Virus genome (UHGV): UHGV-1373577
DNA: 58,666 nt
Reading direction: 5' to 3' (one strand)
DNA from: a virus
Part shown: in pieces, positions 1-58,631 of the stretch
Position numbering within the stretch: the first letter of the stretch is position 1
Layout of the letters: every line of letters begins with the position of its first letter
The notes under the pieces: model-generated
Seen by the model: the letters and a program-made list of their open reading frames with translations, nothing else
Told to the model about the DNA's origin: nothing
Databases searched by the model: none
Translations under genes and position numbers: made by a program

Positions 1-60
1 GGACGGCCCCCGACCATGACGACGACGAACGAGGACGGCCCCCGACCATGACGACCTACG
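1..60. repeat. Tandem imperfect ~32-bp repeats (ggacggcccccgaccatgacgacgacgaacga, then ggacggcccccgaccatgacgacc...) that include the start codon of gene 48..2030. Same unit recurs at the window end.
   Basis: Direct reading: nt 1-32 and 33-56 are near-identical. Nt 58635-58666 is a third copy. Confidence 0.6.
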
Positions 61-2030
61 ACGTGTACTCGAAGAGGGGCGCCGACAACCGCTTCGCGCC
101 CAAGGCGAGTGTCGACGCCCTCACCAATGCCCAGGTCGCCCAGGGGGCCGAGATAGGGACCCTCAAGGAGCAGGTGCGGGCCCAGCTGCTCCTGTCGAAC
201 ATGCTGCCCCGTCAGGGGGGCCCGGGCACCCCCAGCGCCCTCGTCGTCGGGTTCATCGGCGATTCCTGGAGCACCCCCGGCGCCGGAGGCCAGGGGGGCG
301 CCCCCGAGGAGGCGACCATGGTGTCCGTCGCCGCTAAGAGGCTCGGTGTCGGGGCCGCGGTCAGCGGGCAGGGGTCCACGGGCTGGGCCCATGTCCCCTC
401 CCCGCAGGGCAGCACCGGGTTCTTCAGCGCCCCTGAGCGTGTCGACGCCGTCCTCGACGCCCACCCGTCCCTGCTCGTCGTCGTCGGCTCCGTGAACGAC
501 AACTGGGCGATCGACCAGCCCCCGACCCCGGCCGACCCCGCCTCCGGCCCCAGAGCCATCAGCCAGTCCGTCAAGGCCCTTGTCGATCGCGTCAGAGACC
601 GGGCCCCCGCCCTGCCGATCATCGTCGTCGGGCCCCAGCCCACCTCCGAGTACCGCACCTACGCGGGCTCCAGCCACAAGAGCGCCGCCGCGGTCAAGGC
701 GGGTGTCGAAGCCGCCGGGGGCCTCACGAATGGGATCTGGTTCAGTGACTGGCTCGGTGTCGCGACCAGCCCGGCCACCAGGTGGGACCCGGCCTCATCG
801 CCCAACCGGCACTGGGGGCGGGGCGAGATCATCTGCTACGACGGGGTGAACTACGAGGTGACGGCCGACGCCTGGGTCCCGGGCGCGAACCCCGACGCCG
901 CCGACCCCTACCTGGCGTCGTTCCTGCCGTCGGCGCCGGTGTCGAGGAGGACGGCGGTCCTGTCGGGGCGGGGGGCCGTCGGCAAGACCCCCGCCAGCGG
1001 GACCCGGGCGCTGTGGCTCATGAACGACGAGACGCACGTGAACGTGGGCGGGGCGCAGGCGTTCGGCGTCGAGCTGGCGGACCGGGTCATCGAAGGAACT
1101 CAAGCCCTCCGGGACTGGATCATCGGGCAGGGCCCCGTGGTCGTCCGCCCGGCGCCCCCGCCCGCCCCTCCGCCGCCGGGGCCCAACCCCCCTCCGCCGC
1201 CCGCCCGGCCCACGGGGGCGCTGGCCGACGTGCGCGACGCGCGCTGGGGCGTGAAGTGGGGGGCGCTGTCGGCCACTGCGCTTCAGGGGGCGCTGTCGCA
1301 GCTGCCGGAGGGCGCGGCCGTGAGGGGGTCCGCAGCCCTGCCCGTGCGCATGAGCAAGGACGAGGGCGCGGACAGGTTCGTGACGTCCACGGTGTCGTCC
1401 ATCACCCCGAAGGGCGGCGGTGCGGCCGTGCGCATCAACCAGTCCACCATCGCCCAGCTCAAGGCCGTCGAGGACGTCAACGGGGTGGTGGCGACCCTGG
1501 GCGAGGCGCTCGACATCCTGGACGCCGCACCCGCGCGCACCCCGATCATCGTGGAGTGCATGGACACGTCGAACGACATCATCGCGGACTACTGGGTGTA
1601 CGACCAGAAGATGATGCAGTACCTGCTGGGGCGCTACGGGGCCCGGGCCGCCGAGCGGGTCATCGTCGCCACCAACGGGACGCTGAACGCGGCCAGGAGC
1701 AAGGCGAAGGCGGATGCGGCGCTGAAAGTGCTGCCCCGCCTGGCGTACAAGCCGTCCGGGCCGTGGACCGCCGAGGACGTGGGCGCCCTGAAGGCCGTGG
1801 ACATGATCGCCTGCCGGTCGAACGACACCTCCAAGCCGGAGGTGCTGGCGGCCATCAAGAACCACCCGGAGAAGCCGGGGCTGTGGTGGGCGGGCATGAC
1901 GACGGCGGCGCACGTCGACGCCGCCAAGGCGGCGTCGAAGGCGGCGGGGCTGGCGATCGAGGGCTGGATCATGGAGGCGAAGGAGGCCGCTCCGGGGGCC
2001 CTGTCGACGGCGCTGCCCGTCAGGCCGTAG
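48..2030 (+). CDS. SGNH/GDSL-hydrolase-like esterase (candidate LysB-like lipolytic lysis protein or virion enzyme). Has a Pro-rich linker and a C-terminal domain of unknown function.
   Basis: 660-aa ORF. VVGFIGDSWST (GDS block I) and VVVGSVNDN (GxND block III) motifs. PAPPPAPPPPGPNPPPPPARP linker. Sits immediately upstream of the endolysin. Confidence 0.5.
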   Translation: MTTYDVYSKRGADNRFAPKASVDALTNAQVAQGAEIGTLKEQVRAQLLLSNMLPRQGGPGTPSALVVGFIGDSWSTPGAGGQGGAPEEATMVSVAAKRLGVGAAVSGQGSTGWAHVPSPQGSTGFFSAPERVDAVLDAHPSLLVVVGSVNDNWAIDQPPTPADPASGPRAISQSVKALVDRVRDRAPALPIIVVGPQPTSEYRTYAGSSHKSAAAVKAGVEAAGGLTNGIWFSDWLGVATSPATRWDPASSPNRHWGRGEIICYDGVNYEVTADAWVPGANPDAADPYLASFLPSAPVSRRTAVLSGRGAVGKTPASGTRALWLMNDETHVNVGGAQAFGVELADRVIEGTQALRDWIIGQGPVVVRPAPPPAPPPPGPNPPPPPARPTGALADVRDARWGVKWGALSATALQGALSQLPEGAAVRGSAALPVRMSKDEGADRFVTSTVSSITPKGGGAAVRINQSTIAQLKAVEDVNGVVATLGEALDILDAAPARTPIIVECMDTSNDIIADYWVYDQKMMQYLLGRYGARAAERVIVATNGTLNAARSKAKADAALKVLPRLAYKPSGPWTAEDVGALKAVDMIACRSNDTSKPEVLAAIKNHPEKPGLWWAGMTTAAHVDAAKAASKAAGLAIEGWIMEAKEAAPGALSTALPVRP

Positions 2031-40686: not shown

Positions 40687-41447
40687 GCGGCCATGTCGGC
40701 CTCCTCCTTCTTCAGTCGCTTGCAGCGGTAGCAGCCGGGCGAGGACTCGTACTCCCCGCTCGACGCTCCTGCCTCTTCACTACGAACCCGGGCCACGAGC
40801 TCGCTGAAACGGCCCAGGACGGCCTCGGCGACGGCCCGACGGTACTGGAACACCAGCACCCTCGCGCAGCCCGGCAGAACGTCCGTGGACGCATCACGGG
40901 GGATCATGAGCAGGCTCGCCCGCTCCACCTCGTAGCCGTCGCGCTCCAGGGCGTAGCCGTAGAGCATCATCTGCGCGTAGTACTTCCACGCGGTCTCCCA
41001 GATGATCCTGTCCCGGTCCATCAGGACCGACCCGTCCAGGCGGGTGTGCACCACGGAGGAGAGCCCCGCAATGCGGGCCTTCGACAGGACCTTCCAGTCG
41101 ATGACCTCCCTGCGCTCGATGTCGAACAGGTCGACAGTGCCCCTGATCGGCCCGTAGCCGTCAATCTGGGCGACGTCGACCCGCTTCTCCACGAGGATCA
41201 GTCCGGCCCGTCCCTCGGGGGAGTTCGACAAGCGCTGCTGGGCGAGCAGGTGGAAGGCGGTGCCCAGCAGCGGGGCGAGCGGGGTGCCCGCCCTCTTGTC
41301 CTCGTAGGTGCCGCGGATCTTGTCGGCCAGGCAGCGCTCGCAGACCTCTCCGAGCTCGGAGGGCCCGACGTGGCGCTGCCGGTCCCGGTCGGTGGGGGCG
41401 CCGACGATCTCCAGGGCTCGGCCGGTGGCCTCAGAGCCCCACATCAC
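40668..41447 (-). CDS. Cas4-like PD-(D/E)xK exonuclease with Cys cluster.
   Basis: EVCERC near the N-terminus and PGCYRC at the C-terminus (Fe-S-type Cys arrangement). DWK and YYAQMMLYGYAL (QhxxY) nuclease motifs. Confidence 0.5.
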   Translation of the reverse strand: MMWGSEATGRALEIVGAPTDRDRQRHVGPSELGEVCERCLADKIRGTYEDKRAGTPLAPLLGTAFHLLAQQRLSNSPEGRAGLILVEKRVDVAQIDGYGPIRGTVDLFDIERREVIDWKVLSKARIAGLSSVVHTRLDGSVLMDRDRIIWETAWKYYAQMMLYGYALERDGYEVERASLLMIPRDASTDVLPGCARVLVFQYRRAVAEAVLGRFSELVARVRSEEAGASSGEYESSPGCYRCKRLKKEEADMAAWGGMP

Positions 41448-47049: not shown

Positions 47050-47122
47050 GGCCCCCGGGGAGGACTCGAACCTCCCTTTATTCCTCCGCAATAAAGCACG
47101 GTAACTTCATTATGGCGGGGGC
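47050..47122 (-). ncRNA. tRNA-like element A (73 nt). 7-bp acceptor-like stem GCCCCCG/CGGGGGC, T-arm GGAGG-TTCGAGT-CCTCC, and an AU-rich 7-bp hairpin in place of canonical D and anticodon arms.
   Basis: Read on the - strand in the intergenic gap between the stop at 47128 and the start at 47016. No U8 and no U33-type anticodon loop, so it is not a canonical tRNA. Confidence 0.45.
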
Positions 47123-47127
47123 TCCCG

Positions 47128-47526
47128 TCAGCGCTCCAGGAGCCTGCGGGCGGTGGCCCCGGAGGCCGTCAAACCAAGGGAGCCGTAGTGGACCCCGTTC
47201 CGCCGGATGTTGCGGCCGGGGGTGAGGATGTCGTCGCGTTCGGGGAACAGGTCCTCCGTGGTCTGCTGCACCATGCGCGACACGACCAGGAACGTGTCCT
47301 CCCGGTAGGGCGGGAGGAAGGCGTGCGTGGCCCGCCCCTTGCACGACACGGGGATGCGGGTGATGCCCCTCCAGCCGGGGACGGTGGCGTCAACCTCGGT
47401 CATGCCCTCGTCCCGGTGCCGAACAGTGGGCGAGTTGCCGTCAGGCTGGAGCACCATGATGGTGGTCTCCCTGTCGGCGGGGTCGATGATGCGAAGCGGC
47501 CGCCCCGTCATGTTCAGGATGCGGGC
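47128..47526 (-). CDS. Hypothetical protein.
   Basis: MARILNMTGRPL start overlaps the upstream stop (TGATG). 133 aa. The longer listed ORF was rejected. Confidence 0.35.
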   Translation of the reverse strand, partial: ARILNMTGRPLRIIDPADRETTIMVLQPDGNSPTVRHRDEGMTEVDATVPGWRGITRIPVSCKGRATHAFLPPYREDTFLVVSRMVQQTTEDLFPERDDILTPGRNIRRNGVHYGSLGLTASGATARRLLER

Positions 47527-47528
47527 CA

Positions 47529-48308
47529 TCAGTACCGCCCCCCGAGCCGGTCCAGTGCGGTGCGGACGGCGTCGACGACATCGACATAGCCCTCGCCCAG
47601 GCCGTTGGGGGCGGTCCCGACGCGGAAGTGCAGGTAGTTCATCGCCCCGTCGTCGAGGAGGCGGACCCGGGCGCTTCCGTCCGAGTTGGCCGTCAGGTAG
47701 AGCATGAACCGGGTGGCCCCGTTGTCGTCCTCGACGAGGTCGAGCGTGGCCTCGGACTCGTAGCCCAGACTGTTGAGCCACAGGTCGTCGGTTCCCCGAC
47801 GAACCTGCTCCTTGATCCAGTTCTCAAGGGTCTTGCGCAGGTCGGCGAGGGCGTGCCCGATGGCGAGCACCGACAGGCCCCGTCGTGCCTCCTTGACGGC
47901 CTGGTCGAAGGTCAGGGCCTTGTCGAGGTCGGCGAGTACGCGTCCCCAGGAGTCGTCCGGGCCGGGCCCGAACCAGCACAGCGAGTACGCCCCGTACAGG
48001 GGCCCGGGGGCGAGGCACTTGTCGGCCTGCTCGGGGTCGAGCCCCGACTGGTCCTTCAGCAGATCGAAGGCGTCGGCGATGATGTGCTCGGCGATCTCCT
48101 CCTGGTACTCCCCCGTCAGCGGCAGGCCGAACCCCCTGCCTGAGATGTCCTCGACCCGGTAGCCGTCCCCGGTGTTCGACACCCGGTACCTGGCGTAGTC
48201 GTCGAGGTAGATGGTTCCGTCCGGGTGGAACCACAGGGACTCGGGTGTGGTCAGGGCGTGGGGCAGGGTGCGCTGCACCTTCCTCCAGGCCTCGTGCATG
48301 TCGGTCAT
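47529..48308 (-). CDS. Hypothetical protein.
   Basis: 259-aa ORF. Confidence 0.45.
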   Translation of the reverse strand: MTDMHEAWRKVQRTLPHALTTPESLWFHPDGTIYLDDYARYRVSNTGDGYRVEDISGRGFGLPLTGEYQEEIAEHIIADAFDLLKDQSGLDPEQADKCLAPGPLYGAYSLCWFGPGPDDSWGRVLADLDKALTFDQAVKEARRGLSVLAIGHALADLRKTLENWIKEQVRRGTDDLWLNSLGYESEATLDLVEDDNGATRFMLYLTANSDGSARVRLLDDGAMNYLHFRVGTAPNGLGEGYVDVVDAVRTALDRLGGRY

Positions 48309-48326
48309 GTGTTCCTCTCTTTCTCT

Positions 48327-48653
48327 TCACGGGTTGTGGCGGTACCGCACCCGCTTGGCGGTCATTCTCAGGGCCTCCAGGTCACCGGGGCTCACTCGTC
48401 CCGAGTCGTCGGGGTGAACATCGAACTCGATGTCGTCGGGGCGCAGGCCGTCCAGTTCTTCCGGCGTGCGGGGGTCGTCGCTCTTGATGGTGACGACGTC
48501 GCCGTAGGCGCAGATGCTCACCTGGCTGCGGGCTGCGTGAAGGTGCACGATCGCGTTGCGCCGGTACTCGACCTTCACGAACCACTCCCCGGCTTCGCGC
48601 ATGGCCAGGAGCATGTAGGCCCCGAGAGCGGCTACGACATCGTCGTTCTTCAC
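48327..48653 (-). CDS. Hypothetical protein.
   Basis: 108-aa ORF. Confidence 0.4.
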   Translation of the reverse strand: MKNDDVVAALGAYMLLAMREAGEWFVKVEYRRNAIVHLHAARSQVSICAYGDVVTIKSDDPRTPEELDGLRPDDIEFDVHPDDSGRVSPGDLEALRMTAKRVRYRHNP

Positions 48654-49378
48654 TTCTCGCTCCTATTGTTGGCTTCCAGACTCTCCCTCACCCGGTTCAG
48701 CAGAGCCTTGATGACGTCCTCGCTCTCGCTCGACAGGCCCGTGGGTCGCTCACCGGGGCAGAACTCGACGGCGTCGGGGTTCCCGTCGGGGGCGGGACGG
48801 ACGTCGACGCGCCCGAAGGCGTAGACGGTGACGATCTTGACCGGCAGGTAGCACTCCCTGTCCCAGATCCGGAACTCCGTGCTATCGTCGCGCTTCTCCG
48901 TCGACGTGATGGTGATCCGCCAACTGCGCGGATCCCAGGAGTTGAGCACGTTGCTCACCCACCGTCTCGCCTTCTCATAGGCGATGAGCCGCACAGCACT
49001 GCCCAGCCGGGTCTGCACCGAGCGCCAGCACCCCTCCTCCCACACGTCGACGAGGAACGTCGCCTCCTCGGGGTTCACGTTGGGGTTGAACCAGAAGACC
49101 CGCCCTGCGTCGATGACCAGGTGGTTGTAGAAGCCGGTCTCGTTCTCCAGCCACGCCCGCAGGACCTTGTCGACGATCCAGCCGACGGTGCAGTCTTCCC
49201 CGATCTCGCGCTCCTCGCCCGACTCGTGCTCCACGATCAGGTCGAACTCGGGCGCGACCTCGAAGTCCAGCCCCGAGAAGCCCACGGGGGTGATCCTGTT
49301 CTCCTGTCCTTCGGACGCCAGCGCCCCGTCCAGGCCCGGGGGCAGCGTCGACTTGATGTCGTCCCATGCGGCGCTCAT
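48650..49378 (-). CDS. Hypothetical protein.
   Basis: Inner start MSAAWDDIKS. About 243 aa. The upstream listed extension looks like GC-frame readthrough. Confidence 0.4.
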   Translation of the reverse strand: MSAAWDDIKSTLPPGLDGALASEGQENRITPVGFSGLDFEVAPEFDLIVEHESGEEREIGEDCTVGWIVDKVLRAWLENETGFYNHLVIDAGRVFWFNPNVNPEEATFLVDVWEEGCWRSVQTRLGSAVRLIAYEKARRWVSNVLNSWDPRSWRITITSTEKRDDSTEFRIWDRECYLPVKIVTVYAFGRVDVRPAPDGNPDAVEFCPGERPTGLSSESEDVIKALLNRVRESLEANNRSEK

Positions 49379-49974
49379 CGGTTCTCCTTCGCAGCGTAGA
49401 GCAGGTCGTTCATAGCGGTGAATGAGTACGTGATCCCGTGCCCGCCGGTGAGGTACCGGATCATGTTCGGCGTGGACTCCTTGGTCACCTGGAGGGGGAG
49501 GTCGTCGTCCAGGTCCATGGCGAAGTCGCCGACCCAGCACCACGCCGCGAACCGGCGGACCGCGTCCCGGTACTCGCGCAGGTCCGTGGTGTTCACGTCC
49601 AGGCTCTCCGTCATGCTGTCCGTCGACCAGCACAGGCCGTCCATGTCGTCCCAGACCAGCGGCAGGTCCCCGACGAGGACGTTCAGGGCCGAGTGGTACA
49701 CGGCCAGGGCGATGCTGCGGGCGTATCCCGTCTCGTAGGGAATAGGCCTGACGGGGCGGCCCTTGAGCGGGGTGAAGACCTCCTCCCCCGCGTCCTCACC
49801 GATGACGCCGAGCACCCGGTCGCAGCCCACACCGCGCAGGGTGACGACGCCGGTGTTCAGGTCGAGGCGCAGCATGCGCACGATCGCCTCCGTCGGAATG
49901 TTCGCCAGGACCTGCATCCAGATCCGGGTGCGCTCGTCGAACGTGTCCCAAGTGATCTCCTCAAGCGCCATCAC
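49375..49974 (-). CDS. Hypothetical protein.
   Basis: 199-aa ORF. ATGA overlap with the upstream gene. Confidence 0.4.
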   Translation of the reverse strand: MMALEEITWDTFDERTRIWMQVLANIPTEAIVRMLRLDLNTGVVTLRGVGCDRVLGVIGEDAGEEVFTPLKGRPVRPIPYETGYARSIALAVYHSALNVLVGDLPLVWDDMDGLCWSTDSMTESLDVNTTDLREYRDAVRRFAAWCWVGDFAMDLDDDLPLQVTKESTPNMIRYLTGGHGITYSFTAMNDLLYAAKENR

Positions 49975-50279
49975 TTCTCCTCCTTCTCCTCCCGGTCGCG
50001 GACGGCCTCGTGCAGGACCAGGAAGTTGGCGAGGGCGACGATCATCTGGTCCTCCCGTCGGCTGCCGCGCTGGAAGGTGATCCTGCCGCCGTTGTCGTCA
50101 TTGTGGTCATGGTGCATCGTGGCGATGCTGTTCTCCCCGGCCGGGGCCAGGTGGATGATCGCGTGCGCTCCACCGGACCCGGGGATCTCGATACGGGCAT
50201 AGGAGCGGACGCCTCCCATGACTCGTGCCGAGGGCGCGTCCCTGGTGATCCCGGCGATGATCTGCTGAAGTGTTCTCAA
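49971..50279 (-). CDS. Hypothetical protein (TTG start).
   Basis: 102-aa ORF. RBS GGAGGAAGAGGAATGAG precedes the TTG. Confidence 0.35.
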   Translation of the reverse strand: MRTLQQIIAGITRDAPSARVMGGVRSYARIEIPGSGGAHAIIHLAPAGENSIATMHHDHNDDNGGRITFQRGSRREDQMIVALANFLVLHEAVRDREEKEEK

Positions 50280-50330
50280 GGCTCTCTTCTCATTCCTCTT
50301 CCTCCGGTTCGCAGCTCTTCCGCGAACCCG

Positions 50331-50372
50331 TGCCGGACGGGGGAGTCGAACCCCCGCTTCGACCGTCCCGGC
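50331..50372 (-). ncRNA. tRNA-like minihelix B (42 nt). Acceptor-like stem GCCGG(G)AC/GTCCGGC with one bulge, 9-nt joiner, T-arm GGGGG-TTCGACT-CCCCC.
   Basis: Read on the - strand between the stop at 50385 and the start at 50279. Confidence 0.4.
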
Positions 50373-50384
50373 TAATGTGGGCTC

Positions 50385-50828
50385 TCACCACACGTAGATG
50401 GTTACCTTGTCCGTGGCGCCGTCGACGGTGCGGTGGCAGTCGACGCAGACGGCTCCCACCCAGGACGGGTCCGGTACGGTCCCGACCTTGCGCGCCTCGT
50501 ACTTGTGCTGTGCCTCATGCCGGGGGCACAGCGGACCGTATCGGCGGTTCCCGTCGTCGGTCCAGTTCTGGGGCAGGACGACAAAGCCCTCTGCGTTCAG
50601 GGCGGCCGTCAGGAAGTCCCGGGTCACGGGTTCGGCCAGCGGGTTCCTCCCGTCGTACGGCTTGCGACCCAGGAGGTCGTTGGCGAGGCGTCGCAGGCCC
50701 TCCCAGGTGAGCACGTGGTCGGCCCACGACGGGGCCGGGTTCCACTCGGGGCTCGTGTCCACGTTCAGCGCCTCGACGATCCGCTCGATGAGCGCGTCGG
50801 AGCCGGTCCTGGCCTCGTTCTCGTTCAT
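50385..50828 (-). CDS. Hypothetical Cys/His-rich protein (possible zinc binding).
   Basis: CPRHEAQHKY...CVDCH cluster. 147 aa. Confidence 0.4.
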   Translation of the reverse strand: MNENEARTGSDALIERIVEALNVDTSPEWNPAPSWADHVLTWEGLRRLANDLLGRKPYDGRNPLAEPVTRDFLTAALNAEGFVVLPQNWTDDGNRRYGPLCPRHEAQHKYEARKVGTVPDPSWVGAVCVDCHRTVDGATDKVTIYVW

Positions 50829-50839
50829 TGCTCTCTCTT

Positions 50840-51148
50840 TCAGTGGCGTTCCGCGTACAGGGCGCCATAAAGGGACGCCCGGATCTCCCGGTCCAGACGG
50901 TAGGTGCGCTCCTCATGCACGAAGACCCTGTCCGACTGCCGGATGAATGCGCTCCGAACACCGGTGATCTCATCGTCGTCCAGCGGGAACAGCGCCAGGC
51001 GGATGATGAGATCCGGTCGGATCCCCTCGGGAGCACCCCCGTCCTCGAAGATGAACCGGAGGGCGTCCCTCGCCTCGTTCAGGTTTCCCGCGAGCAGCGC
51101 GTCCCGGACAAGCCGGGCCTGCTCGTGCAGCCAGGTGGTCAGGTTCAT
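50840..51148 (-). CDS. Hypothetical protein.
   Basis: 102-aa ORF with RBS GAGAGGAAGTATC. Confidence 0.35.
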   Translation of the reverse strand: MNLTTWLHEQARLVRDALLAGNLNEARDALRFIFEDGGAPEGIRPDLIIRLALFPLDDDEITGVRSAFIRQSDRVFVHEERTYRLDREIRASLYGALYAERH

Positions 51149-51183
51149 GATGATACTTCCTCTCTTATCGGTTGAGTTGGTCG

Positions 51184-51237
51184 TGCTCCCGGCGGGGCTC
51201 GAACCCGCTTCGCGGCCTTGACGTTCACGACGGGAGC
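51184..51237 (-). ncRNA. tRNA-like minihelix C (54 nt). Acceptor GCTCCCG/CGGGAGC, 22-nt joiner, T-arm GCGGG-TTCGAGC-CCCGC.
   Basis: Perfect 7-bp and 5-bp helices, read on the - strand. Followed by an A discriminator. Confidence 0.45.
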
Positions 51238-51246
51238 TACCGGGGC

Positions 51247-51285
51247 GGGCGAGTATGGAAATCTCGTCCCGCCCCGGCTCGGTTT
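51247..51285. terminator. Strong hairpin (14 bp with a 1-nt bulge) followed by TTTTT on the + strand. Abuts the stop of - gene 51287..52003.
   Basis: ccggggcgggcgag-tatggaaat-ctcgtcccgccccgg then ctcggttttt. The 20-mer gagtatggaaatctcgtccc recurs at 56289-56308. Confidence 0.45.
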
Positions 51286-51286
51286 T

Positions 51287-52003
51287 TCAGGCGTCGGCGT
51301 AGACCCGCAGGGCCGGGGCCAGATCGACCTCAGTGGGCACGGGGATGACGGCACCGTCCTCGTACTCCTCCCGAACCCCGCCGCGCGGGGTTCCGTCCGC
51401 GGCCCACAGGAAGACAACGACATAGCCGTCCCGCTTCGGCGTGAAGCGGGCCAGGACTCCCCCGTCGAGGGAGTTACGTGAGAAGTCCGTGCGAATGGTC
51501 TCGGGCACGACATTCCCCAGCCGCCAGCCGACATACCCATCGGCGGGCGACGCACCGGCCTCAAGGGCTCGGTCGACATCGGCCAGGACCGCGTTCAGGT
51601 TCTCCCACGGCATGTCGTTGCCCTTACGCCGGGCGAACACGACATGGGCAGGGATCACGCCCCACGGCGTCTCAAGGGAACCCGGCTCATCGCCGAGGAA
51701 GAACCTCCCGGCGTCGCCGCGGTCCTGGACGAGCCAGGACGAGACGAGCAGGGATGCGATCCGCTCCCGGACTTGGGCCACGGTGGGGCGGGCGTCGCCG
51801 TCCCAGTACACGGCGTCCTGACCTTCCTGGCCGTCCCAGCCCGGCTGGAAAGCAAGGACGCCCTCGTCCGCGTAGAACCCGGGCGGGGCGTAGTAAGGCA
51901 TCCGTTTGAGCTCCTCGTAGGGGCGCAGAATCCCGCCCCCGAGAAGCGGTCCGACTTCGTCCCACTGGGACGGGTCGACAATGCGGTTCTCAACCGTGTT
52001 CAT
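51287..52003 (-). CDS. Hypothetical protein.
   Basis: 238-aa ORF with RBS GAAGAGAGGAAGACAC. Confidence 0.45.
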   Translation of the reverse strand: MNTVENRIVDPSQWDEVGPLLGGGILRPYEELKRMPYYAPPGFYADEGVLAFQPGWDGQEGQDAVYWDGDARPTVAQVRERIASLLVSSWLVQDRGDAGRFFLGDEPGSLETPWGVIPAHVVFARRKGNDMPWENLNAVLADVDRALEAGASPADGYVGWRLGNVVPETIRTDFSRNSLDGGVLARFTPKRDGYVVVFLWAADGTPRGGVREEYEDGAVIPVPTEVDLAPALRVYADA

Positions 52004-52023
52004 TGTGTCTTCCTCTCTTCCTT

Positions 52024-52320
52024 TCAGTACCCGAAGAGGACCTGTTCAAGCGCGTCGGTCAGCTCCCGACGCAGGCCGTCCTCCGTGGGGCCGAAAACCT
52101 CATCGCCGTGCAGACGCACAGCCACGAGCGCGGCGTTGGCTTCCTGCGGGGCCAGGTCATGCACGGCAAGCCGGGCCACAACGCCCGCCGGGATCGTGGG
52201 GAAGGCCGTCAGATGGGTGATGGCCCGGCGCAGATCGCGGTAGTCCCCGGTGCGCAGGGACAGGTAGGCCATGCGGGCCTGTTCGACAACGGCCTGCGTT
52301 GTGGCGGCATTCGTGCTCAT
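52024..52320 (-). CDS. Hypothetical protein.
   Basis: 98-aa ORF. Confidence 0.35.
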   Translation of the reverse strand: MSTNAATTQAVVEQARMAYLSLRTGDYRDLRRAITHLTAFPTIPAGVVARLAVHDLAPQEANAALVAVRLHGDEVFGPTEDGLRRELTDALEQVLFGY

Positions 52321-52358
52321 TGTTTTCCTCCCGGTTTTCGTGGGTGTGTGAGTGTTGC

Positions 52359-52643
52359 TCAGCGGGCGGCCCGACGGGCACGGTGGTCCCGGATGGCCTT
52401 GTACTCGTTCAGGAACGCCCGGGACCAGTACCGCAGACTGGGCAGAGGATCCCAGTCCCCAGTCTTGCGTCCCTTGCGGGCGGCCTGAAACAGGACGTCT
52501 CCCGCCGCCTTGAAGTCCTCATCATTCTTCAGGCGGTACAGCCAAAGGCCGTACTCGCCGATGCCCCTGCGTCCAAACTTAATGGTTTCGTGCAGGTAGT
52601 CATTCGTTACCTGTACGATCCACTCCCGGGTTTGGGCGTCCAT
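52359..52643 (-). CDS. Hypothetical protein.
   Basis: 94-aa ORF with RBS GAAAGGAAGAGAC. Confidence 0.4.
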   Translation of the reverse strand: MDAQTREWIVQVTNDYLHETIKFGRRGIGEYGLWLYRLKNDEDFKAAGDVLFQAARKGRKTGDWDPLPSLRYWSRAFLNEYKAIRDHRARRAAR

Positions 52644-52689
52644 TGTCTCTTCCTTTCAGTTGTGTGCCGTACGGATTGCACGACATTCG

Positions 52690-52734
52690 TGCCCCGGGCC
52701 CGCGACGAACGGGCGATGGTTCTCCCTCCGGGGC
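52690..52734 (-). ncRNA. tRNA-like minihelix F (45 nt). Acceptor GCCCCGG/CCGGGGC, 13-nt joiner, T-arm GCCCG-TTCGTCG-CGGGC.
   Basis: Perfect helices, read on the - strand. A discriminator. Preceded by the GNRA-type hairpin GCGGGAC-GAAA-GTCCGC. Confidence 0.4.
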
Positions 52735-52740
52735 TGCCGT

Positions 52741-52780
52741 AGCGGACTTTCGTCCCGCGCCGGCTCGATTTTTGGGGCTC
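52741..52780. terminator. Hairpin gcggac-tttc-gtcccgc followed by gccggctcgattttt on the + strand. Parallels the 51247 element.
   Basis: Direct reading. T-tract on the + strand only. Confidence 0.35.
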
Positions 52781-53138
52781 AGCCCCGGTTCTGGCGCCAG
52801 ATGACGTAGCTAGTGCCCGTGCGGTTCCCGCGATCCTGGGCGTCCCAGTAACAACCGTCATAGGACGCGGGGATAGCCTCGTCCCCCGCCTCATCGGTGA
52901 GGCAGGCGGCGACCGGCACCCAAGCACAGTCCTCGGCTCCCGCGGTAGAAGTCTCGAAGCACCGGGGCGCCAAGTGGGTGGGTTCAGTCCCGGCCGGGGC
53001 GGCCGTCGTGACGACGGCGGGAGCCGGCTGGGTGGTCGGGGCGGGCTCCCCCGACGCGATAAGGGCGACGACGCCGGCGGCCATTCCGCCTGCGAGGACG
53101 AGCGCCGCCGCCACTGGGGCGGCGTCACGGATGTTCAT
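52779..53138 (-). CDS. Secreted / membrane-anchored Cys-containing protein.
   Basis: N-terminal hydrophobic AAPVAAALVLAGGMAAGVVALIA. Four Cys in the mature part. Confidence 0.4.
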   Translation of the reverse strand: MNIRDAAPVAAALVLAGGMAAGVVALIASGEPAPTTQPAPAVVTTAAPAGTEPTHLAPRCFETSTAGAEDCAWVPVAACLTDEAGDEAIPASYDGCYWDAQDRGNRTGTSYVIWRQNRG

Positions 53139-53175
53139 TTGGGTTCTCTCTCTTCGATTGGTGGGTGGGTGCTTA

Positions 53176-53526
53176 TCAGGCGCGACGGGTCAGCCCGTCG
53201 CAGCCGATGACGGTTCCGTCCTCGTCCCGGAGCAGGCGCCCCGGGCTCATAAGGTCCCCGCGGCTCGCCGGGGCGGCGTCACTAACCGCCTTGGCGACGA
53301 TGAGGATCACGTCCTCCTCGGGCTCGGGGAGACCAACGATCTCCCGCGGGCTCCCGGCCACGCTAATCTGGACTTCGTGTCCGGCGATATTGGTCTGCTC
53401 GGGCGGGAGCCGGTCATACACGACGCGCGCGGCGCCCCGCTCATCCGGCGGGATGACGACGGTGGCCCCGTCCAGCGCCTTGATGCTCAGCGCGTGGGGC
53501 GTGAGGTTACGGTAGATCGTGGTCAT
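53176..53526 (-). CDS. Hypothetical protein.
   Basis: 116-aa ORF with RBS GAAGAGAGAAGAACC. Confidence 0.4.
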   Translation of the reverse strand: MTTIYRNLTPHALSIKALDGATVVIPPDERGAARVVYDRLPPEQTNIAGHEVQISVAGSPREIVGLPEPEEDVILIVAKAVSDAAPASRGDLMSPGRLLRDEDGTVIGCDGLTRRA

Positions 53527-53888
53527 GGTTCTCTTCTCTCTTCGGTTGTGGGCCGCATTGTTGCGGAGCGCCGATCTTTCAGGCGCATCCCCGCTTGCGC
53601 GGGGTTAAAGGTGGGTTGGGTTCAGGCGCTGGCGGCCGCGCGCTCGAAGAATCGGGCGATGGCGTCCCGGTCCTCGATCGGGGCGCTGTGGCCGCGACGG
53701 TCGGTAATGCCGTCTCCGAGGATCGTGAAGGCGCCGATCACGCGGCCCCGGTAGAGCGCATTCCCGTTGCCGGTCACACCGGCTTCGGGGATGATGCTCC
53801 GGAGGTAGTCCCCGCGCCGCGCTGGGTGGGGACAGTGGCCCTGGTATTCATTTTCGGTTCCTCTCTTCGAAGGTGCTGCGTTTCAGCG

Positions 53889-53942
53889 CGCCCGGGCGCG
53901 GGATCGAACCGCACTGCGTCCTCCGCCGTGGGGCGGCCGGGC
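53889..53942 (-). ncRNA. tRNA-like minihelix D (54 nt). Acceptor GCCCGGC/CCCGGGC (6 of 7 bp), joiner with a CGCC-CCAC-GGCG hairpin, T-arm TGCGG-TTCGATC-CCGCG.
   Basis: Read on the - strand between the stop at 53951 and the tiny ORF start at 53870. Confidence 0.35.
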
Positions 53943-53950
53943 CGATAGGG

Positions 53951-54676
53951 TCAGAGATAGTAGTCGTGTTCACGCAGGTAGGCGTCCGCGGCCTCGATCA
54001 CGGGCCGCACGATATCGTCCATATCCCGCCAGTCGACGGGCTCAGTGCGCCCGGGGCGCATCATGTGGGCGCCGCCGTCGGGCCCGGTGAGGGTGACGCT
54101 GCCGTCATCCTTCCAGTCGACGGAGATGATGACGACGCCGCAGTCCCCGTAGCTCTTCCCGTTCCTGCGCACCACAGAGGCGCCCTTGGTGGCCGCCTCG
54201 ATCGCGTGCTCAATGGTCCTGGCCGCCGCGCACGCCGCGGCCCGGCGCAGCCGACGCCGAATCTGCGCCACAGTGCGCAGACGATCGTCGCCCAGACCCA
54301 GGATCACGCCTCCGGCGCCGATGGGCGCCGTGATCACTCGGCCGCCCTGGCGGTCGGTCCCGCACGTGCGCAGTCCGCCGCCCGCTTCGGCGGCCAGATA
54401 GCGGGCTGCGAGTGCGGCGATCGCCCACGGGGCGTCGTCGTCGGCCAGACGGATGGCGTCCCCGCCGTCCGCGGGATAGAGGACGGCGTCATCCTTGGCG
54501 CCGCTGAGATACCCGAGGATGGGCCGTTTCGGCGTCCCGAGCCGGATCACGGCGTCGGCGCCGTCGGCGGAGAGATTGTGAACAAGGCCGCCCCGGATTG
54601 CGAGTGCCGGGGCGATATCCGCGATCCGCAGCCGCAGGTCGGCCACAGCGGTACGGTAGCAGGTCTTGAGGTTCAT
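53951..54676 (-). CDS. Hypothetical protein.
   Basis: Start MNLKTCYRTAV after RBS GAAAGGAACCGAAAA. About 241 aa. Confidence 0.4.
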   Translation of the reverse strand: MNLKTCYRTAVADLRLRIADIAPALAIRGGLVHNLSADGADAVIRLGTPKRPILGYLSGAKDDAVLYPADGGDAIRLADDDAPWAIAALAARYLAAEAGGGLRTCGTDRQGGRVITAPIGAGGVILGLGDDRLRTVAQIRRRLRRAAACAAARTIEHAIEAATKGASVVRRNGKSYGDCGVVIISVDWKDDGSVTLTGPDGGAHMMRPGRTEPVDWRDMDDIVRPVIEAADAYLREHDYYL

Positions 54677-55250
54677 TTTTCGGTTCCTTTCGGAATTGGG
54701 TGGGGATGATAATGGGTGCCCGGTCCTCTTCTGACAGAGTCCTCTCGTCACCATGCGGGTGACCGGGGCGGTTCTGAGCCGTCCGCTCGGTGTTACCGGG
54801 CCGCGTATTTCGTCTTAAATCCGTTCATCTCACGCCCCAGGACCGTTCTGGGCGTCCCACGACATATGATGATACGGGCTCCCGGTCCCCTTGGGGACCG
54901 GTCCTGCGCATCGTCGTGGGCGTCCGCACGGCCCTATGGGCACGGATCGCGTCTGGCTCGCCAGCCGCTCGCGGTAATTTTTAACCGTCTATTGCATTAC
55001 CGCGAATATGTAGTTCTCAATCTTCCCGGGGTAAGGATGAGACCGGAGGACTTCGTCCTCGCTCTCTTCCTCCCCTTTGTGATGACTCCAGTCTAGCGCG
55101 CCTGTTGGGGTTTGTCTATGCTTGATTCTGTGTTCTACGTCTCTTTGAGGTTTGAGGTTCAAACTCGGGAGTTCGTCCGCCGGATGGCGGGGCCGACAAA
55201 TGCTCGTCCTGTTCGCGCGCTATGCAGTTGTGCTGAGTCGCGCCCGCCGG

Positions 55251-55303
55251 AGGAATCGAACCCCCGGGCCCGCCGTCATGGGCGACGGCGGGCGACCATC
55301 CGG
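55251..55303 (-). ncRNA. tRNA-like minihelix E (53 nt). Acceptor GCCCGCC/GGCGGGC, joiner with a CGCC-CATGAC-GGCG hairpin, T-arm GGGGG-TTCGATT-CCTCC (one G-U pair).
   Basis: Read on the - strand, 14 nt after the stop of gene 55317..55655. Confidence 0.4.
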
Positions 55304-55316
55304 GCTGTAGCGGGGC

Positions 55317-55655: not shown

Positions 55656-56389
55656 CTCGGTGTTCCCTTCGATCGGTGCTCCTTGCTGACGGGTATAAAT
55701 GTACTCGCCCCGTGAGGGCTGGTCAAGGGGTGAGGGCGGTTGTGGAGCGTGTTCTGCGTCTCATTTTGAGTTGGGGGCGGGGATGAGGGCACGACTCACT
55801 TCGTGATCTCGACAATCCCCGGGGCGCACGGATGATGCTCGTCAGTTTCACGTGAAACATATGAGTAGGGAATGGCGGGGTATGGGGCGGGGAGTCGACA
55901 TGCGCTTGGCTGCCTTGCGTGCTCCTGCGTCGCACGCGCGTCTCGCCAGCGCGTGACCTAGAGCACATAGAAGCGGGGATGCACAAGGATGGGGGTAAGG
56001 CAAGGGACAAAAGTCCCGAAGAGAGGATTGGGTTGGTTGGGGGTAGGGCGAAAGTTTCGGGTAGCCGAAACATGGTATGTGTGACGTAGGTATGTGCGGC
56101 GTGGTATTACGTCTGGCGTATCATCCTCGGGGAGGAGAAGTGTGATGGAGAAGACATACATTTGGGGGTAGACAGAATGACTTGGGTATGCTATGGAGAA
56201 TGAGATGGGGATCACAGGGGATGAGGGTTGAAGATAACGTTGTTATGTGTATGTGTGAGTAGCAATCTCGCGTGAGGGTGGGTTGGGAGTATGGAAATCT
56301 CGTCCCAAAAATAGTGAAGTTCGGGTAAATGTGACTTGGACCATATGCATAAAGATACGGTTGAGTGCATATTGCGTTATCTTCGTAAT

Positions 56390-56465
56390 AGATGATGATG
56401 ATGATGATGATGATAGATGATGATTGATGATATATGATAGATGATAATAGATGATAGACGATGAC
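56390..56465. repeat. (GATGAT)n microsatellite degenerating into GATAGATGA variants.
   Basis: gatgatgatgatgatgatgatgatagatgatgattgatgatatatgatagatgataatagatgatagacgatgac. Confidence 0.8.
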
Positions 56466-56525
56466 TATATTTGGTAAACGATAGTCTTTAATCCTGCGTT
56501 TACTATTTCCTGTTCAACGCTAAAT

Positions 56526-56620
56526 GTGACCTAAGTTACGTTATCTATTTTTGACTTTGTGACCTGGGTTACGTTAACTATTCTTGATTGTGGCCTGGCT
56601 CACGTTTATCTATATTTGAC
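56526..56620. repeat. Three tandem iteron-like repeats of about 32 bp (GTGACCTRRGTTACGTTAWCTATTYTTGA).
   Basis: gtgacctaagttacgttatctatttttgac / gtgacctgggttacgttaactattcttgat / gtggcctggctcacgtttatctatatttgac. Confidence 0.7.
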
Positions 56621-57768
56621 GGCCTTTTACGCATACGTCGGCCTCGGATTGGTACTCATTAGACAAGCGTCGAATTAGCCTTTCACGCTGGGTTGAAACG
56701 ATTCGAAGCCGAATCGTCGCTGTACGGGGCCTAGAACGGCCCATACCCCTACCCCCAGGCAGTTACACCGACCGGGGTGAGTTAGGCCGCCAGCGTGGCT
56801 TACAGCGCGTCGGAGACCCATATGGGCCTGCCTCAGTACACACCCATGCACACGCACGCGCGCGTGATAGCACCATAGGGAGGAAAGTGCAAGGGTGAGT
56901 TTGTGTGCGGTGAGTCATGTGTCTTGACACAGTGTGTGTGAGCAAGGCAACAAATTAGTGGGAGTGCCCCATCGTTTCGATTTGGGGTAGGAGCTGCGTT
57001 CCGCCCACGGGGACCTTTCGTTGGCACCGTAGGGAAAGGTGCCGATAAGTACCGTTATGACAATTTACTTAGCAGACTATCTACATACCGGGGAGTTTTT
57101 GAGCGGGGCATTTTAGTGCGTGCGTGGGAGAAAATCAATGTGACGTCGCTCGCAGCCGGGCGAAGGCGAAATCGGATGCTCTCGACGACGGGGCGTGGCA
57201 CGCGGGTGTGAGGTCGCTCATCTTTCCCCGCACCCTACCCACCTAAACCCCCAACTTCCCTACTCGCCTAGCAGAGTGTCGACTGATCCGTCAAAACGGC
57301 CCTCCTCGCCTCCCGAGACCCAATATAAGTTTATGCACTCTTTTTATCCATGGCTGCATAAACGTGTTCCACGTCACGAGTACTAAACCAGCCCCTTCAG
57401 CCACACAAACCCCGCCCGTACCATAGGACTTCGGACCCATCACCCCGACCTACTCCAGCCATCTCAACGAAAAGTCCCCCTTAGGCCACCCTAAGAAAAT
57501 CCTGCATATTTCCTATGCACACCCATGCATAAAACCCTAATATTTCGGCCTTGTCCGCAATCTGAGATTTTCGCCGAATATGTCTACTGCGTCACACTTT
57601 TTTATCCACTCAACCCCCTCCTCTCCTCAGTACCTATCTGTTACTGGTGTGACTCCACATCATCAAACACACCCCATCAGCACCAAACATCTTGATTCCT
57701 CGAAGACAGTTACCCGTGCGGCCTGTGTGACTAAGCCCGACCGCAAAACCCCTCTCCACCATCATCAA

Positions 57769-58050
57769 GGGGGTGTCGATGCCTCCTAGGCCCCGAAACC
57801 CCGATACAACTTCTCTGTTTACTATGCGAACCCCTTCCTCCTCTTCTTTCGCCCCCTCCTCCTGAGCCCCGCCAGTCACAGCCCGGCCCTCAGCCCTTCC
57901 GCGCCCCGCCGACCCGGCCGTCCGCTTCAACGCCCTCTCCTCAAGGGCGGGGGTGTCGACAAACCCCCTTGACAGTCCGCCAACACCGGTTATAATCGCG
58001 CGCCCGCGCACGCGCGGTAATAAGAAGGAGAAGCCGGAGGGGGTGTCGAA
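57769..58050. promoter_or_regulatory. Three spaced copies of AAGGG(CG)GGGGTGTCGA upstream of gene 58089..58631. Candidate operator, pac or ori protein-binding sites.
   Basis: caagggggtgtcgat (57769), agggcgggggtgtcgac (57948), ggagggggtgtcgaa (58038). Confidence 0.35.
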
Positions 58051-58088
58051 CCCCGAAACGGGCAGGAACCTCGTGATATCCTCAAGTC

Positions 58089-58631
58089 ATGCGGATCGAG
58101 ATCAAGCCGCCCTCCGGCGCCACCCCGCCCCTTCGGCCCGGGGCGCTCGTGACCCTCCGTGTCGAGGCCGCCGACCCGGCCCCGCGAATCGACGGCCCGG
58201 TGTCGATCGCCTACGAGGGCCGCTACGCCCCCGCCAACAACCCCCCGGCCTTCCTGTTCCCGGAGAAGGACCCCGCCCCGGGGGTGTCGACCGCCACCAG
58301 CGCGGCATCCGATTTCCGCACCCCCGCCGCCACCCCCTCATCGCCCCATGTCGACATTCCCGCCCACGAGGGCGACACGATCACGGCGACCCTCATCACC
58401 GCACCCCCGAACGCCAAGACCTACAGCGCGGCCCTCAGGGCCCCGGCCCCCGGAAACAACCCCCACCAGCCCGTCGAGATGACCCTCGTAGAAGGCGGCG
58501 CTGCACCGCCCACTCCGCCGACGCCGGGGCCGGCGCCCGGGCTGACCATCACCCCCGACGACCCCGACGACCCCGACGTGCTCACCCTCGACCCCGCCCC
58601 CGGCAACGACAACATCGTCGTCGTGGGCTGA
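58089..58631 (+). CDS. Pro/Ala-rich hypothetical protein. Adjacent to the esterase-like gene if the genome is circular.
   Basis: 180-aa ORF. Contains sense-oriented GGTGTCGA copies, like other + genes. Weak RBS. Confidence 0.4.
   Translation: MRIEIKPPSGATPPLRPGALVTLRVEAADPAPRIDGPVSIAYEGRYAPANNPPAFLFPEKDPAPGVSTATSAASDFRTPAATPSSPHVDIPAHEGDTITATLITAPPNAKTYSAALRAPAPGNNPHQPVEMTLVEGGAAPPTPPTPGPAPGLTITPDDPDDPDVLTLDPAPGNDNIVVVG

Follow-up and report, generated by a model that had tools for sequence, protein, structure and literature searches.

In silico analysis of the virus genome UHGV-1373577, a tailed-phage genome of 58,666 nucleotides (nt) that is referred to here as the window, identified six short elements, A to F, which resemble the acceptor and T arms of a transfer RNA (tRNA) and which all lie on the minus strand, shortly after a stop codon, in the gaps between genes of a leftward operon. 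The elements keep their order and their stems in related phages, and the smallest form occurs also in phages of a second, unrelated lineage. We regard it as about an even chance (probability near 0.5) that they are tRNA-derived signals cut by the host ribonucleases P and Z (RNase P and RNase Z), akin to the t-elements of plant mitochondria.

Structure and placement of the elements

The minus-strand block runs from a promoter-like site (Table 1) through many small open reading frames (ORFs) with no function assigned into the replication genes, and this gene order suggests that the operon is an early one. All six elements fall within the first ~9 kilobases (kb) of the block and all are flanked by same-strand ORFs; the junctions elsewhere in the operon are tight or overlapping. 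In every copy in the window, G1, the first base of the acceptor, is 5-49 nt downstream of a stop codon, and the discriminator base is followed by a ribosome-binding site and the next start codon at a distance of 33-51 nt, or 565 nt in the case of E. A position between a stop codon and the next start was also what the first-pass annotation of this DNA had described, and its six minus-strand elements were recovered at essentially the coordinates it gave, except that E, for which it had a start at 55303/55293, is now placed at 55305-55241.

Table 1. Positions of the six elements (from G1 to the discriminator base), of the hairpins that adjoin them and of the promoter-like sites (context only) in the window.
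Feature	Position	Strand	T-loop	Description
Element E	55305-55241	-	TTCGATT, 55260-55254	5-bp acceptor GCCCG/CGGGC; linker GAUGGU; 10-bp internal hairpin; 7-bp T stem; discriminator G
Element D	53942-53889	-	TTCGATC, 53908-53902	6-bp acceptor GCCCGG/CCGGGC; small covarying hairpin, then AGGACGCA; 6-bp T stem; discriminator G
Element F	52734-52690	-	TTCGTCG (non-canonical, without A58), 52709-52703	7-bp acceptor GCCCCGG/CCGGGGC; 13-nt linker; 5-bp stem; discriminator A
Element C	51237-51184	-	TTCGAGC, 51203-51197	7-bp acceptor GCTCCCG/CGGGAGC; 22-nt variable linker; T arm GCGGG-TTCGAGC-CCCGC; discriminator A
Element B	50372-50331	-	TTCGACT, 50350-50344	42-nt minimal form; 6-bp acceptor GCCGGG/UCCGGC including one G.U; 10-nt linker; 6-bp T stem; discriminator A
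Element A	47122-47050	-	TTCGAGT, 47070-47064	Acceptor GCCCCCG/CGGGGGC; A+T-rich D-like and anticodon-like arms; T arm GGAGG-TTCGAGT-CCTCC; 13 layers; discriminator C
Long hairpin directly upstream of C	51239-51278	-		Loop holds the 20-mer GGGACGAGATTTCCATACTC
Hairpin directly upstream of F	52736-52764	-		5' half CGAGCCGGsGCGGGACGA, same as in the hairpin upstream of C
Small hairpin around the stop codon of the gene upstream of B	50376-50392	-		TGTGG-TGAGAGC-CCACA
Hairpin downstream of B	50306-50328	-		Before the next gene's ribosome-binding site; sequence varies between genomes, pairing mostly kept
Hairpin downstream of F	52665-52685	-		Ahead of the next ribosome-binding site
Promoter-like site	55698-55726	-		TTGACC-17-TACATT, ahead of the leftward block's first gene
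Second promoter-like site	55090-55118	-		TAGACA-17-TAGACT, between E and the next gene

The constant feature of the family is an unbroken 3' strand from the T-loop to position 72, which is 12 nt long in B to F and 13 nt in A. The 5' strand is interrupted at points specific to each class, after 7 of the 12 base pairs (bp) in C and F (7+5), in the middle in B and D (6+6, with a 7:66 mismatch), as 5+7 in E of this genome (5, two mismatches and 5 in its relatives) and as 7+6 or 8+5 in A. The 7-bp and 5-bp stems that had at first been assigned to all six elements are thus those of C and F, and not of A, B, D or E. Similarly, the acceptor strand GCCGGAC once proposed for B does not exist as one uninterrupted stretch, the letters at that place being GCCGGGA, and GCCCGCC for E pairs perfectly in this genome, but the relatives keep GCCCG/CGGGC instead. 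In the mini-helix alignment G1, C2, G53, T54, T55, C56, G57 and C61 were invariant over all classes and A58 was present in every class except F, and the elements therefore carry the acceptor and T-arm invariants of tRNAs (G53, T54, T55, C56, R57, A58, C61 and the 12-nt 3' strand), with the exceptions of the absent A58 in F and the 13 layers of A. A canonical T-loop, which the first-pass annotation gave for all six, was seen in A, B, C, D and E but not in F. The middle, from the 5' acceptor strand to the T stem, spans 9-40 nt and contains GG in every linker; it folds into D-like and anticodon-like arms in A and into a small hairpin in D and E, and is unpaired in B, C and F.

The five-nt trailers of the six elements read CTGTT, ACGGG, ACGAC, ACGAA, GCGCT and GCGAC, with neither an encoded CCA nor a U-run after any element. 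Several leaders have a conserved A at -1/-4. When the first G of element A is taken as position -1, a tRNA-His-type acceptor geometry (G-1:C73) results, which is unique to class A. A Shine-Dalgarno-like GGAGG in several linkers was considered as a ribosome-binding decoy and dropped, being absent from B and C and a common sequence of the tRNA variable region.

To compare the number of such structures with chance, the window and 200 Markov simulations were scanned for a 5-bp stem with a TTCRANN loop stacked on a 7-nt acceptor. The scan returned three perfect (12/12) sites against 0.08 in the simulations and six near-perfect (≥11/12) sites against 0.49. Five of these six sites were the intergenic, minus-strand elements A, B, C, D and E; the sixth, at 26334, is within a plus-strand tail gene and looks like a chance match. 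F has no TTCRANN loop and was recovered by a separate scan for TTC loops. The six elements are real and far above chance expectation. Pairing was evaluated on 22 distinct mini-helix sequences representing all classes, in a 32-column alignment that was made by hand and fitted to the structure, since MAFFT left the 5' ends of full-length elements out of register. In this alignment 93.9% of cells were paired; shuffles reached 69% and slid partners 41-62%. Of the 12 pairs, 9 had changed on both sides. These double changes are between paralogous classes, and in this respect the compensatory covariation claimed on first inspection was real; within an orthologous class, however, the stems hardly vary. 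Folded in isolation, the 42-nt form adopted the mini-helix with 93% of the ensemble. The folding-energy z-scores of the elements ranged from +0.5 to -4, a measure that on its own is weak evidence in G+C-rich DNA.

The elements were then compared with tRNA genes and known RNA classes. ARAGORN made a single call in the window, a tRNA-Met at E (55240-55315), and in 21 related loci it gave either nothing or mutually inconsistent oddities running into the upstream gene, the call at E never being reproduced. The supposed anticodon hairpin has other loop sequences in the orthologues of E, and an anticodon was not kept among orthologues, in which the middle 9-40 nt differs in length and sequence. The Rfam models gave no match at gathering score in the window or in six related loci, and the Rfam tRNA model had no match in the window even at E-values up to 10. 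At this permissive threshold the sole relevant match was that of C to the mascRNA-menRNA family (RF01684; 20.6 bits against a gathering score of 42.5, E-value 2.9), with no match for the other elements. Judged by sequence, then, the elements are tRNA-like and are not tRNA genes, as had been proposed from the letters alone. The accompanying statement that none has a canonical D or anticodon arm needs qualifying for A, with its cloverleaf-like extra arms, and for E, with its tRNA-Met call, although that call appears in no relative.

Other tRNA-related structures were likewise not matched. Position 3:70 is C:G or U:A and not the G3:U70 of transfer-messenger RNA (tmRNA), and ARAGORN reported no tmRNA. 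As intrinsic terminators the elements fail, with no U-run directly after them and none flagged as terminator-like on the minus strand. The window's ORFs were searched against Pfam or PHROGs, 40 being scanned, among them 10 of the 11 ORFs of at least 450 amino acids (a putative tape measure ORF of 1798 amino acids was left out), and none of these 40 matched a tRNA-related enzyme, a defence-related protein, an integrase or Ro60/TROVE. A phage attP copy of the 3' end of a host tRNA was rejected, since the window has six such sites, all of them with both acceptor strands, and no integrase was seen among the scanned ORFs. The motif GNCGAAN0-1G of YrlA RNAs is found in the window's B as GTCGAAG and was also set aside, as it is not kept in the B orthologues GGTCATTGCGC and GGTCTTCGAC or in other classes; a conserved YrlA-type D arm is absent from the elements.

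Conservation in related phages and recurrence in a second lineage

No near-identical match to the region was found among 50,697 deposited phage genomes, and the window has no close relative among deposited phages, its terminase-region and DNA-polymerase proteins retrieving distant relatives only. The closest DNA polymerases (~40% identical) are those of Glutamicibacter and Brevibacterium phages, and the host is therefore probably a high-G+C actinobacterium. Glutamicibacter phage Montesquieu, the nearest isolate tested, has no such element. Relatives of the same clade were obtained by protein-anchored searches of IMG/VR, which yielded 39 loci from ~25 contigs of 30-61 kb, and counts from IMG/VR pattern scans are lower bounds. 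The 39 related loci held 99 T-arm motifs on the coding strand and 4 on the opposite strand. The same six orthologous classes, in the order E-D-(F)-C-B-A, were found in at least 24 related contigs, and thus the syntenic copies that the first-pass annotation had suggested searching for do exist; F was present in 3 contigs only. The genes between the elements vary among the relatives by insertion, deletion and replacement.

Pairwise identity among orthologues was 0.92-1.0 for the 5' acceptor strand and 0.96-0.99 for the T arm and 3' acceptor strand. The linker reached only 0.60-0.80, and third positions of codons in the flanking genes 0.42-0.77. These values support selection on the acceptor/T-arm helix and not on the middle, in agreement with the selection on structure suggested before. 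The linker of A has a 40-nt A+T-rich form and, in other genomes, a 20-nt G+C hairpin form, that of B has two forms among orthologues, and the hairpins of D range from 4 to 10 bp with compensated stems. The linkers of C differ in length by non-multiples of three, and the region is therefore non-coding. Changes in the stems within a class are very rare, nearly all of them being C to U opposite G to give G.U, and since such pairs are retained on this strand only, they point to an RNA of the sense strand.

A covariance model built from class C alone placed B, E, F and D at the right coordinates, albeit with E-values of 0.3-1.8 among noise, and missed A; its second-best match, at 41033-41091, was discarded as chance because it is inside an exonuclease gene and has no T-loop. 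When metagenomes were scanned with the 3' half of class C, 31 further phage-type loci came up, all on DNA contigs, together with real tRNAs sharing the T arm; in these DNA assemblies no CCA follows the discriminator of the class C loci. The same 24-nt 3' half was searched for in 185,579 species genomes and was found in four unrelated records, namely a Peribacteria tRNA-Glu and three myxobacterial loci without an ARAGORN call, which may be tmRNA 3' ends. It was present in no actinobacterial species-representative genome and was therefore not copied from a host tRNA.

Single copies have been lost in some relatives. In L009 (4775-4800) class C and its upstream hairpin are removed exactly between two GCCGGG repeats, and in L001 (9770-9810) a deletion of ~530 nt extends from the T-loop of F, which is thereby truncated, into the gene after the next one. 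Single copies are thus dispensable, and these deletions illustrate the plasticity of the region. In L103 (metagenome contig ERZ772918.8174, ~320-420), a class C copy with a 4-nt linker and a 6/7 acceptor has the direct repeat GGTAAACCCCGCGCGAGCGGGGATGATC on both sides.

Pattern scans of IMG/VR for E- and B-type elements uncovered a 42-nt minimal form, GCCCGRATGGTYGYAGCGGGGGTTCGAYTCCCCCGCCGGGCR, in which a linker of 10 nt joins an acceptor of 5 bp to a T stem of 7 bp. Copies of this type occur in at least 43 further phage contigs of ~38-44 kb and 61-67% G+C, several of which have sample identifiers resembling those of the Human Microbiome Project. These phages form a second lineage for which the element was the only blastn match between six of its loci and the window; tblastn of the ORFs flanking the element in one of its loci (L115) against the window found nothing, and tblastx between the two lineages gave compositional noise only. 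Each locus has one copy, situated among small early genes near an Erf recombinase, and at least three different genes occupy the upstream position. The layout, which matches that in the window, consists of a stop codon (often in a small hairpin), 1-5 nt, the element, CGAC or CGAA, a C/A-rich spacer of ~20 nt, AGGAG and ATG. The stems are 100% paired with only three pairs varying, to G.U or U.G, and A7, T8, G9, G10, T11, G13 and A15 are conserved in the 42-nt form. ARAGORN made no tRNA call in the 17 of these loci that were scanned. A covariance model from the second-lineage copies alone found the window's B at full length with 55.1 bits (E-value 4e-10) and E with 29.4 bits (E-value 2.7e-4), with nothing else in the window below 0.6. 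Because the model detects both, B and E are, on this sequence evidence, members of a widespread family that goes undetected by tRNA finders and Rfam.

Proposed processing and rival explanations

Our literature search found no description of tRNA-like elements at the gene junctions of phage operons, which agrees with the first-pass statement that no described phage system matches; analogues outside phages do exist in t-elements, mascRNA and YrlA. A large survey of structured RNAs in viruses refers to tRNA-like candidates only in general terms. Two other kinds of mimic are the tRNA-like domain of tmRNA, marked by G3:U70, a tag reading frame and a CCA that is either encoded or added, and the tRNA-like structures of plant viruses, which are located at the 3' terminus of the RNA genome, often with a pseudoknot. 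Both imitate the acceptor and T arms, have no anticodon arm and serve as recognition sites for tRNA enzymes, but none of their hallmarks (G3:U70, tag frame, CCA, 3'-terminal site, pseudoknot) is present in the window's elements. The closest functional analogue is the plant mitochondrial t-element, which was discovered by screening for GGTTCRANYCC. RNase P and RNase Z cut it, and it sets 5' and 3' ends of messenger RNAs (mRNAs) and receives non-templated C/A (PMC1920247). The two have in common a non-canonical tRNA-like fold, the kept T-arm motif (GGTTCGWNYC is matched by five of the six elements) and a site beside same-strand coding regions, which in the phage would be within an mRNA precursor if the operon is co-transcribed. 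However, t-elements are organellar, scattered single copies of ~74 nt with a cloverleaf outline, whereas those described here belong to a bacterial virus, measure 42-73 nt, mostly lack D and anticodon arms, form five or six ordered paralogues per operon and would be processed by analogy.

Additional precedents share parts of this design. The tRNA-shaped units between mitochondrial coding regions are likewise cut marks for RNase P and RNase Z (PMC8601606), but they are working tRNAs, whereas the window's elements are unable to decode. The mascRNA/MEN-beta RNAs (RF01684) also combine acceptor and T arm with a reduced middle and are released from a longer transcript by RNase P and RNase Z (PMC11693755); theirs is a 3'-end device of vertebrate nuclear long non-coding RNAs, and the resemblance of C to them is one of shape, not membership. 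YrlA Y RNAs are tRNA mimics of bacteria and mycobacteriophages. In Mycobacterium smegmatis, RNase P cuts the tRNA-like module of YrlA, and CCA is added to the module in vivo, which shows that actinobacterial enzymes accept such mimics (PMC4201824). YrlA RNAs are encoded within 4 kb of a Ro60 (Rsr) gene and have conserved D and T arms, the Ro-binding helix with its motif and a closed 'acceptor' stem-loop, whereas none of the scanned Ro60-size ORFs of the window carries a Ro60 domain, and Rfam gave no match. RNase P also cuts the phi80 M3 RNA, the P1/P7 C4 antisense RNA and operon mRNAs (PMC11143913), which are likewise non-tRNA phage or operon RNAs, though these are single regulatory RNAs or weak sites with no canonical T arm and no junction family.

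On this basis we propose that the elements are tRNA-derived modules transcribed within the leftward polycistronic early RNA. Each keeps, as a coaxial helix starting with G1:C72, the half of a tRNA that is read by RNase P, RNase Z, the CCA-adding enzyme and the T-loop modification enzymes, and the linker GG might stand in for G18-G19 of the D-loop. Cleavage by host RNase P would fall on the 5' side of G1, and that by RNase Z, or by a different pathway of tRNA 3' maturation, after the discriminator. The operon's first ~9 kb would thereby be divided into blocks of small, translationally coupled genes, and the adjoining hairpins might protect the new ends of these blocks. A tRNA-like RNA of 42-73 nt would be released and might receive CCA, with a possible effect on the fate of the mRNA. 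RNase P reads the stack of acceptor and T stem like a ruler (PMC4919913), and a constant length with a split that varies by class is what would be expected if total helix length is measured. Cutting by RNase P and RNase Z, CCA addition, stabilisation of ends and tRNA mimicry, the functions proposed in the first-pass annotation, all fit the anatomy of the elements. That list did not distinguish a cut made for its own sake from one made to release the RNA, and the present observations are compatible with both.

Several observations weigh against the elements being cut marks of this kind. F is without A58. The base at -1 is A or C; RNase P of E. coli prefers U there. The CGA conserved after the discriminator in C to F and in every second-lineage copy is unaccounted for, and the single copy per locus in the second lineage means that punctuation does not hold for the family in general. 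Single copies have also been deleted or truncated, C in L009 and F in L001. Furthermore, stems that are nearly invariant within a class reflect more constraint than RNase P or RNase Z is known to require, which hints at sequence-specific recognition or at a role for the released RNA.

This last point leads to the main rival explanation, in which the released mini-tRNAs would themselves be the product, acting in trans by binding or soaking up factors that read the acceptor/T arm or tRNA 3' ends, with excision by RNase P and RNase Z as a mere production route. Candidate targets are MenT/AbiEii-type nucleotidyltransferase toxins, tRNA-processing or CCA-adding enzymes, EF-Tu or a synthetase. We consider such mimics unlikely, although several points favour them: stems almost invariant within classes, and linkers too in the 42-nt form, would suit a defined fold or a sequence-specific partner, many otherwise unrelated phages carry a single copy among early genes, copies are individually dispensable as accessory anti-defence genes are, toxins that target the acceptor stem exist in Actinobacteria (PMC7450476, PMC10435456) and phage tRNAs are already known as counter-defence (10.1101/2023.03.15.532788). 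Nevertheless, no tRNA- or defence-related protein is found among the scanned ORFs, the absence of the class C 3' half from actinobacterial species-representative genomes means that there is no host tRNA copy, and six paralogues in one operon, each exactly at a gene junction, suit cis-acting signals at least equally. The specific proposal of a decoy array of mini-tRNAs, titrating factors of the acceptor end such as abortive-infection toxins of the MenT/AbiEii type or tRNA-3'-end pyrophosphokinases and thereby protecting the host tRNA pool early in infection, appears to us quite unlikely.

It is very unlikely that the elements are plain structures requiring no tRNA enzymes, such as stabilising 5' or 3' hairpins, terminators or attenuators without a U-tract, or devices for Rho exclusion, whose likeness to tRNA is a matter of ancestry. 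Stable G+C-rich helices in untranslated gaps, often beside ordinary hairpins, and a promoter-like site after E, as after a terminator, would be in line with this, but a generic hairpin needs no invariant T-loop, G1, 12-nt 3' strand or one-sided bulge of 9-40 nt, the neighbouring ordinary hairpins vary freely in sequence where the mini-helix does not, and a terminator is contradicted by the lack of a U-run and of any minus-strand terminator call. Decaying tRNA genes, or recombination 'linkers' between mosaic phages with no function as RNA, would explain the resemblance to tRNAs minus D and anticodon arms, the location where gene content differs between genomes and the deletions that end inside elements or at short repeats within them. 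Neutral relics would not, however, be expected to show 92-100% identity against 42-77% at codon third positions, to maintain pairing through changes to G.U only or to recur at the same type of junction in loci without other detectable similarity, and gene conversion would have homogenised the linker too, yet the linker varies; we hold this reading to be highly improbable. That the elements are working armless tRNAs which decode codons, like some mitochondrial tRNAs, has the tRNA-Met call at E and the cloverleaf-like outline of A on its side and is close to refuted, as no anticodon loop is conserved, the anticodon region varies among orthologues and is just 10 nt in the commonest form, and the calls in relatives are sporadic and conflicting, with no Rfam tRNA match at E-values up to 10.

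If cutting by RNase P and RNase Z is the correct reading, this phage group would use mitochondria-like, tRNA-shaped cut marks, down to 42 nt in size, on a long transcript, which would be a new layer in the control of phage early gene expression. The elements would also be the smallest natural substrate family with which to ask how bacterial tRNA-processing enzymes measure their targets, and would supply synthetic biology in actinobacteria with compact RNA-processing parts that the host itself powers. A decoy function would instead make them a new class of RNA-based counter-defence. In either case the elements are common among metagenome phage contigs and, being in no Rfam family and invisible to tRNA finders, are unannotated at present.

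Adjoining hairpins, repeats and other features of the window

Ordinary hairpins adjoin C, F and B on the upstream side and B, D and F on the downstream side, and the hairpin around the stop codon ahead of B has an analogue around the stop codon in the second phage lineage. The exact 20-mer GGGACGAGATTTCCATACTC in the loop upstream of C (51251-51270, minus strand) occurs a second time at 56287-56306 (minus strand) in an A+T-rich non-coding region, and the related motif CGAGCCGGsGCGGGACGA is found ahead of C and F in the window and in relatives; these sequences could be a protein-binding or promoter element. Between the promoter-like site that follows E and the start codon at 54675 lies an untranslated stretch of ~415 nt (54676-55090, minus strand) that is rich in hairpins. 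It matched nothing in Rfam and could represent an unrecognised RNA or else a long leader with structure. After element D there are two short overlapping ORFs (53850-53774 and 53777-53622, minus strand), which may be a split or frameshifted gene. Many early genes between 47022 and 53868 on the minus strand have a near-identical ribosome-binding and start context, GAAGAGAGGAA(n)ATG (repeat families D2 and D5), which is reminiscent of the start-associated sequences of some actinophages.

At the right end of the window, ~2.3 kb (55700-58050) hold no convincing genes and have a G+C content of 52% compared with 67% overall, with short ATGAT/GATAGAT repeats at 56385-56467; this could be an origin or a regulatory region. 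The 11-mer TCGACACCCCC has nine exact copies genome-wide, and 33 copies with at most one mismatch against 3.6 expected, on both strands. The copies cluster at 57769-58290, where four exact ones surround a perfect sigma-70-type promoter on the plus strand (TTGACA-16-TATAAT, 57969-57996), and the 11-mer looks like a dispersed operator or 'stoperator'-type site. Annotated functions in the window comprise a lysin, terminase, portal, tape measure, DNA polymerase, primase and SNF2 helicase. The first large ORF (48-2030, plus strand), which encodes a GDSL/SGNH lipase-acylhydrolase domain, adjoins the multi-domain lysin (GH25, an endolysin-like domain and peptidoglycan-binding) and is a candidate for a second lysis enzyme, one whose target might be an acylated cell envelope.

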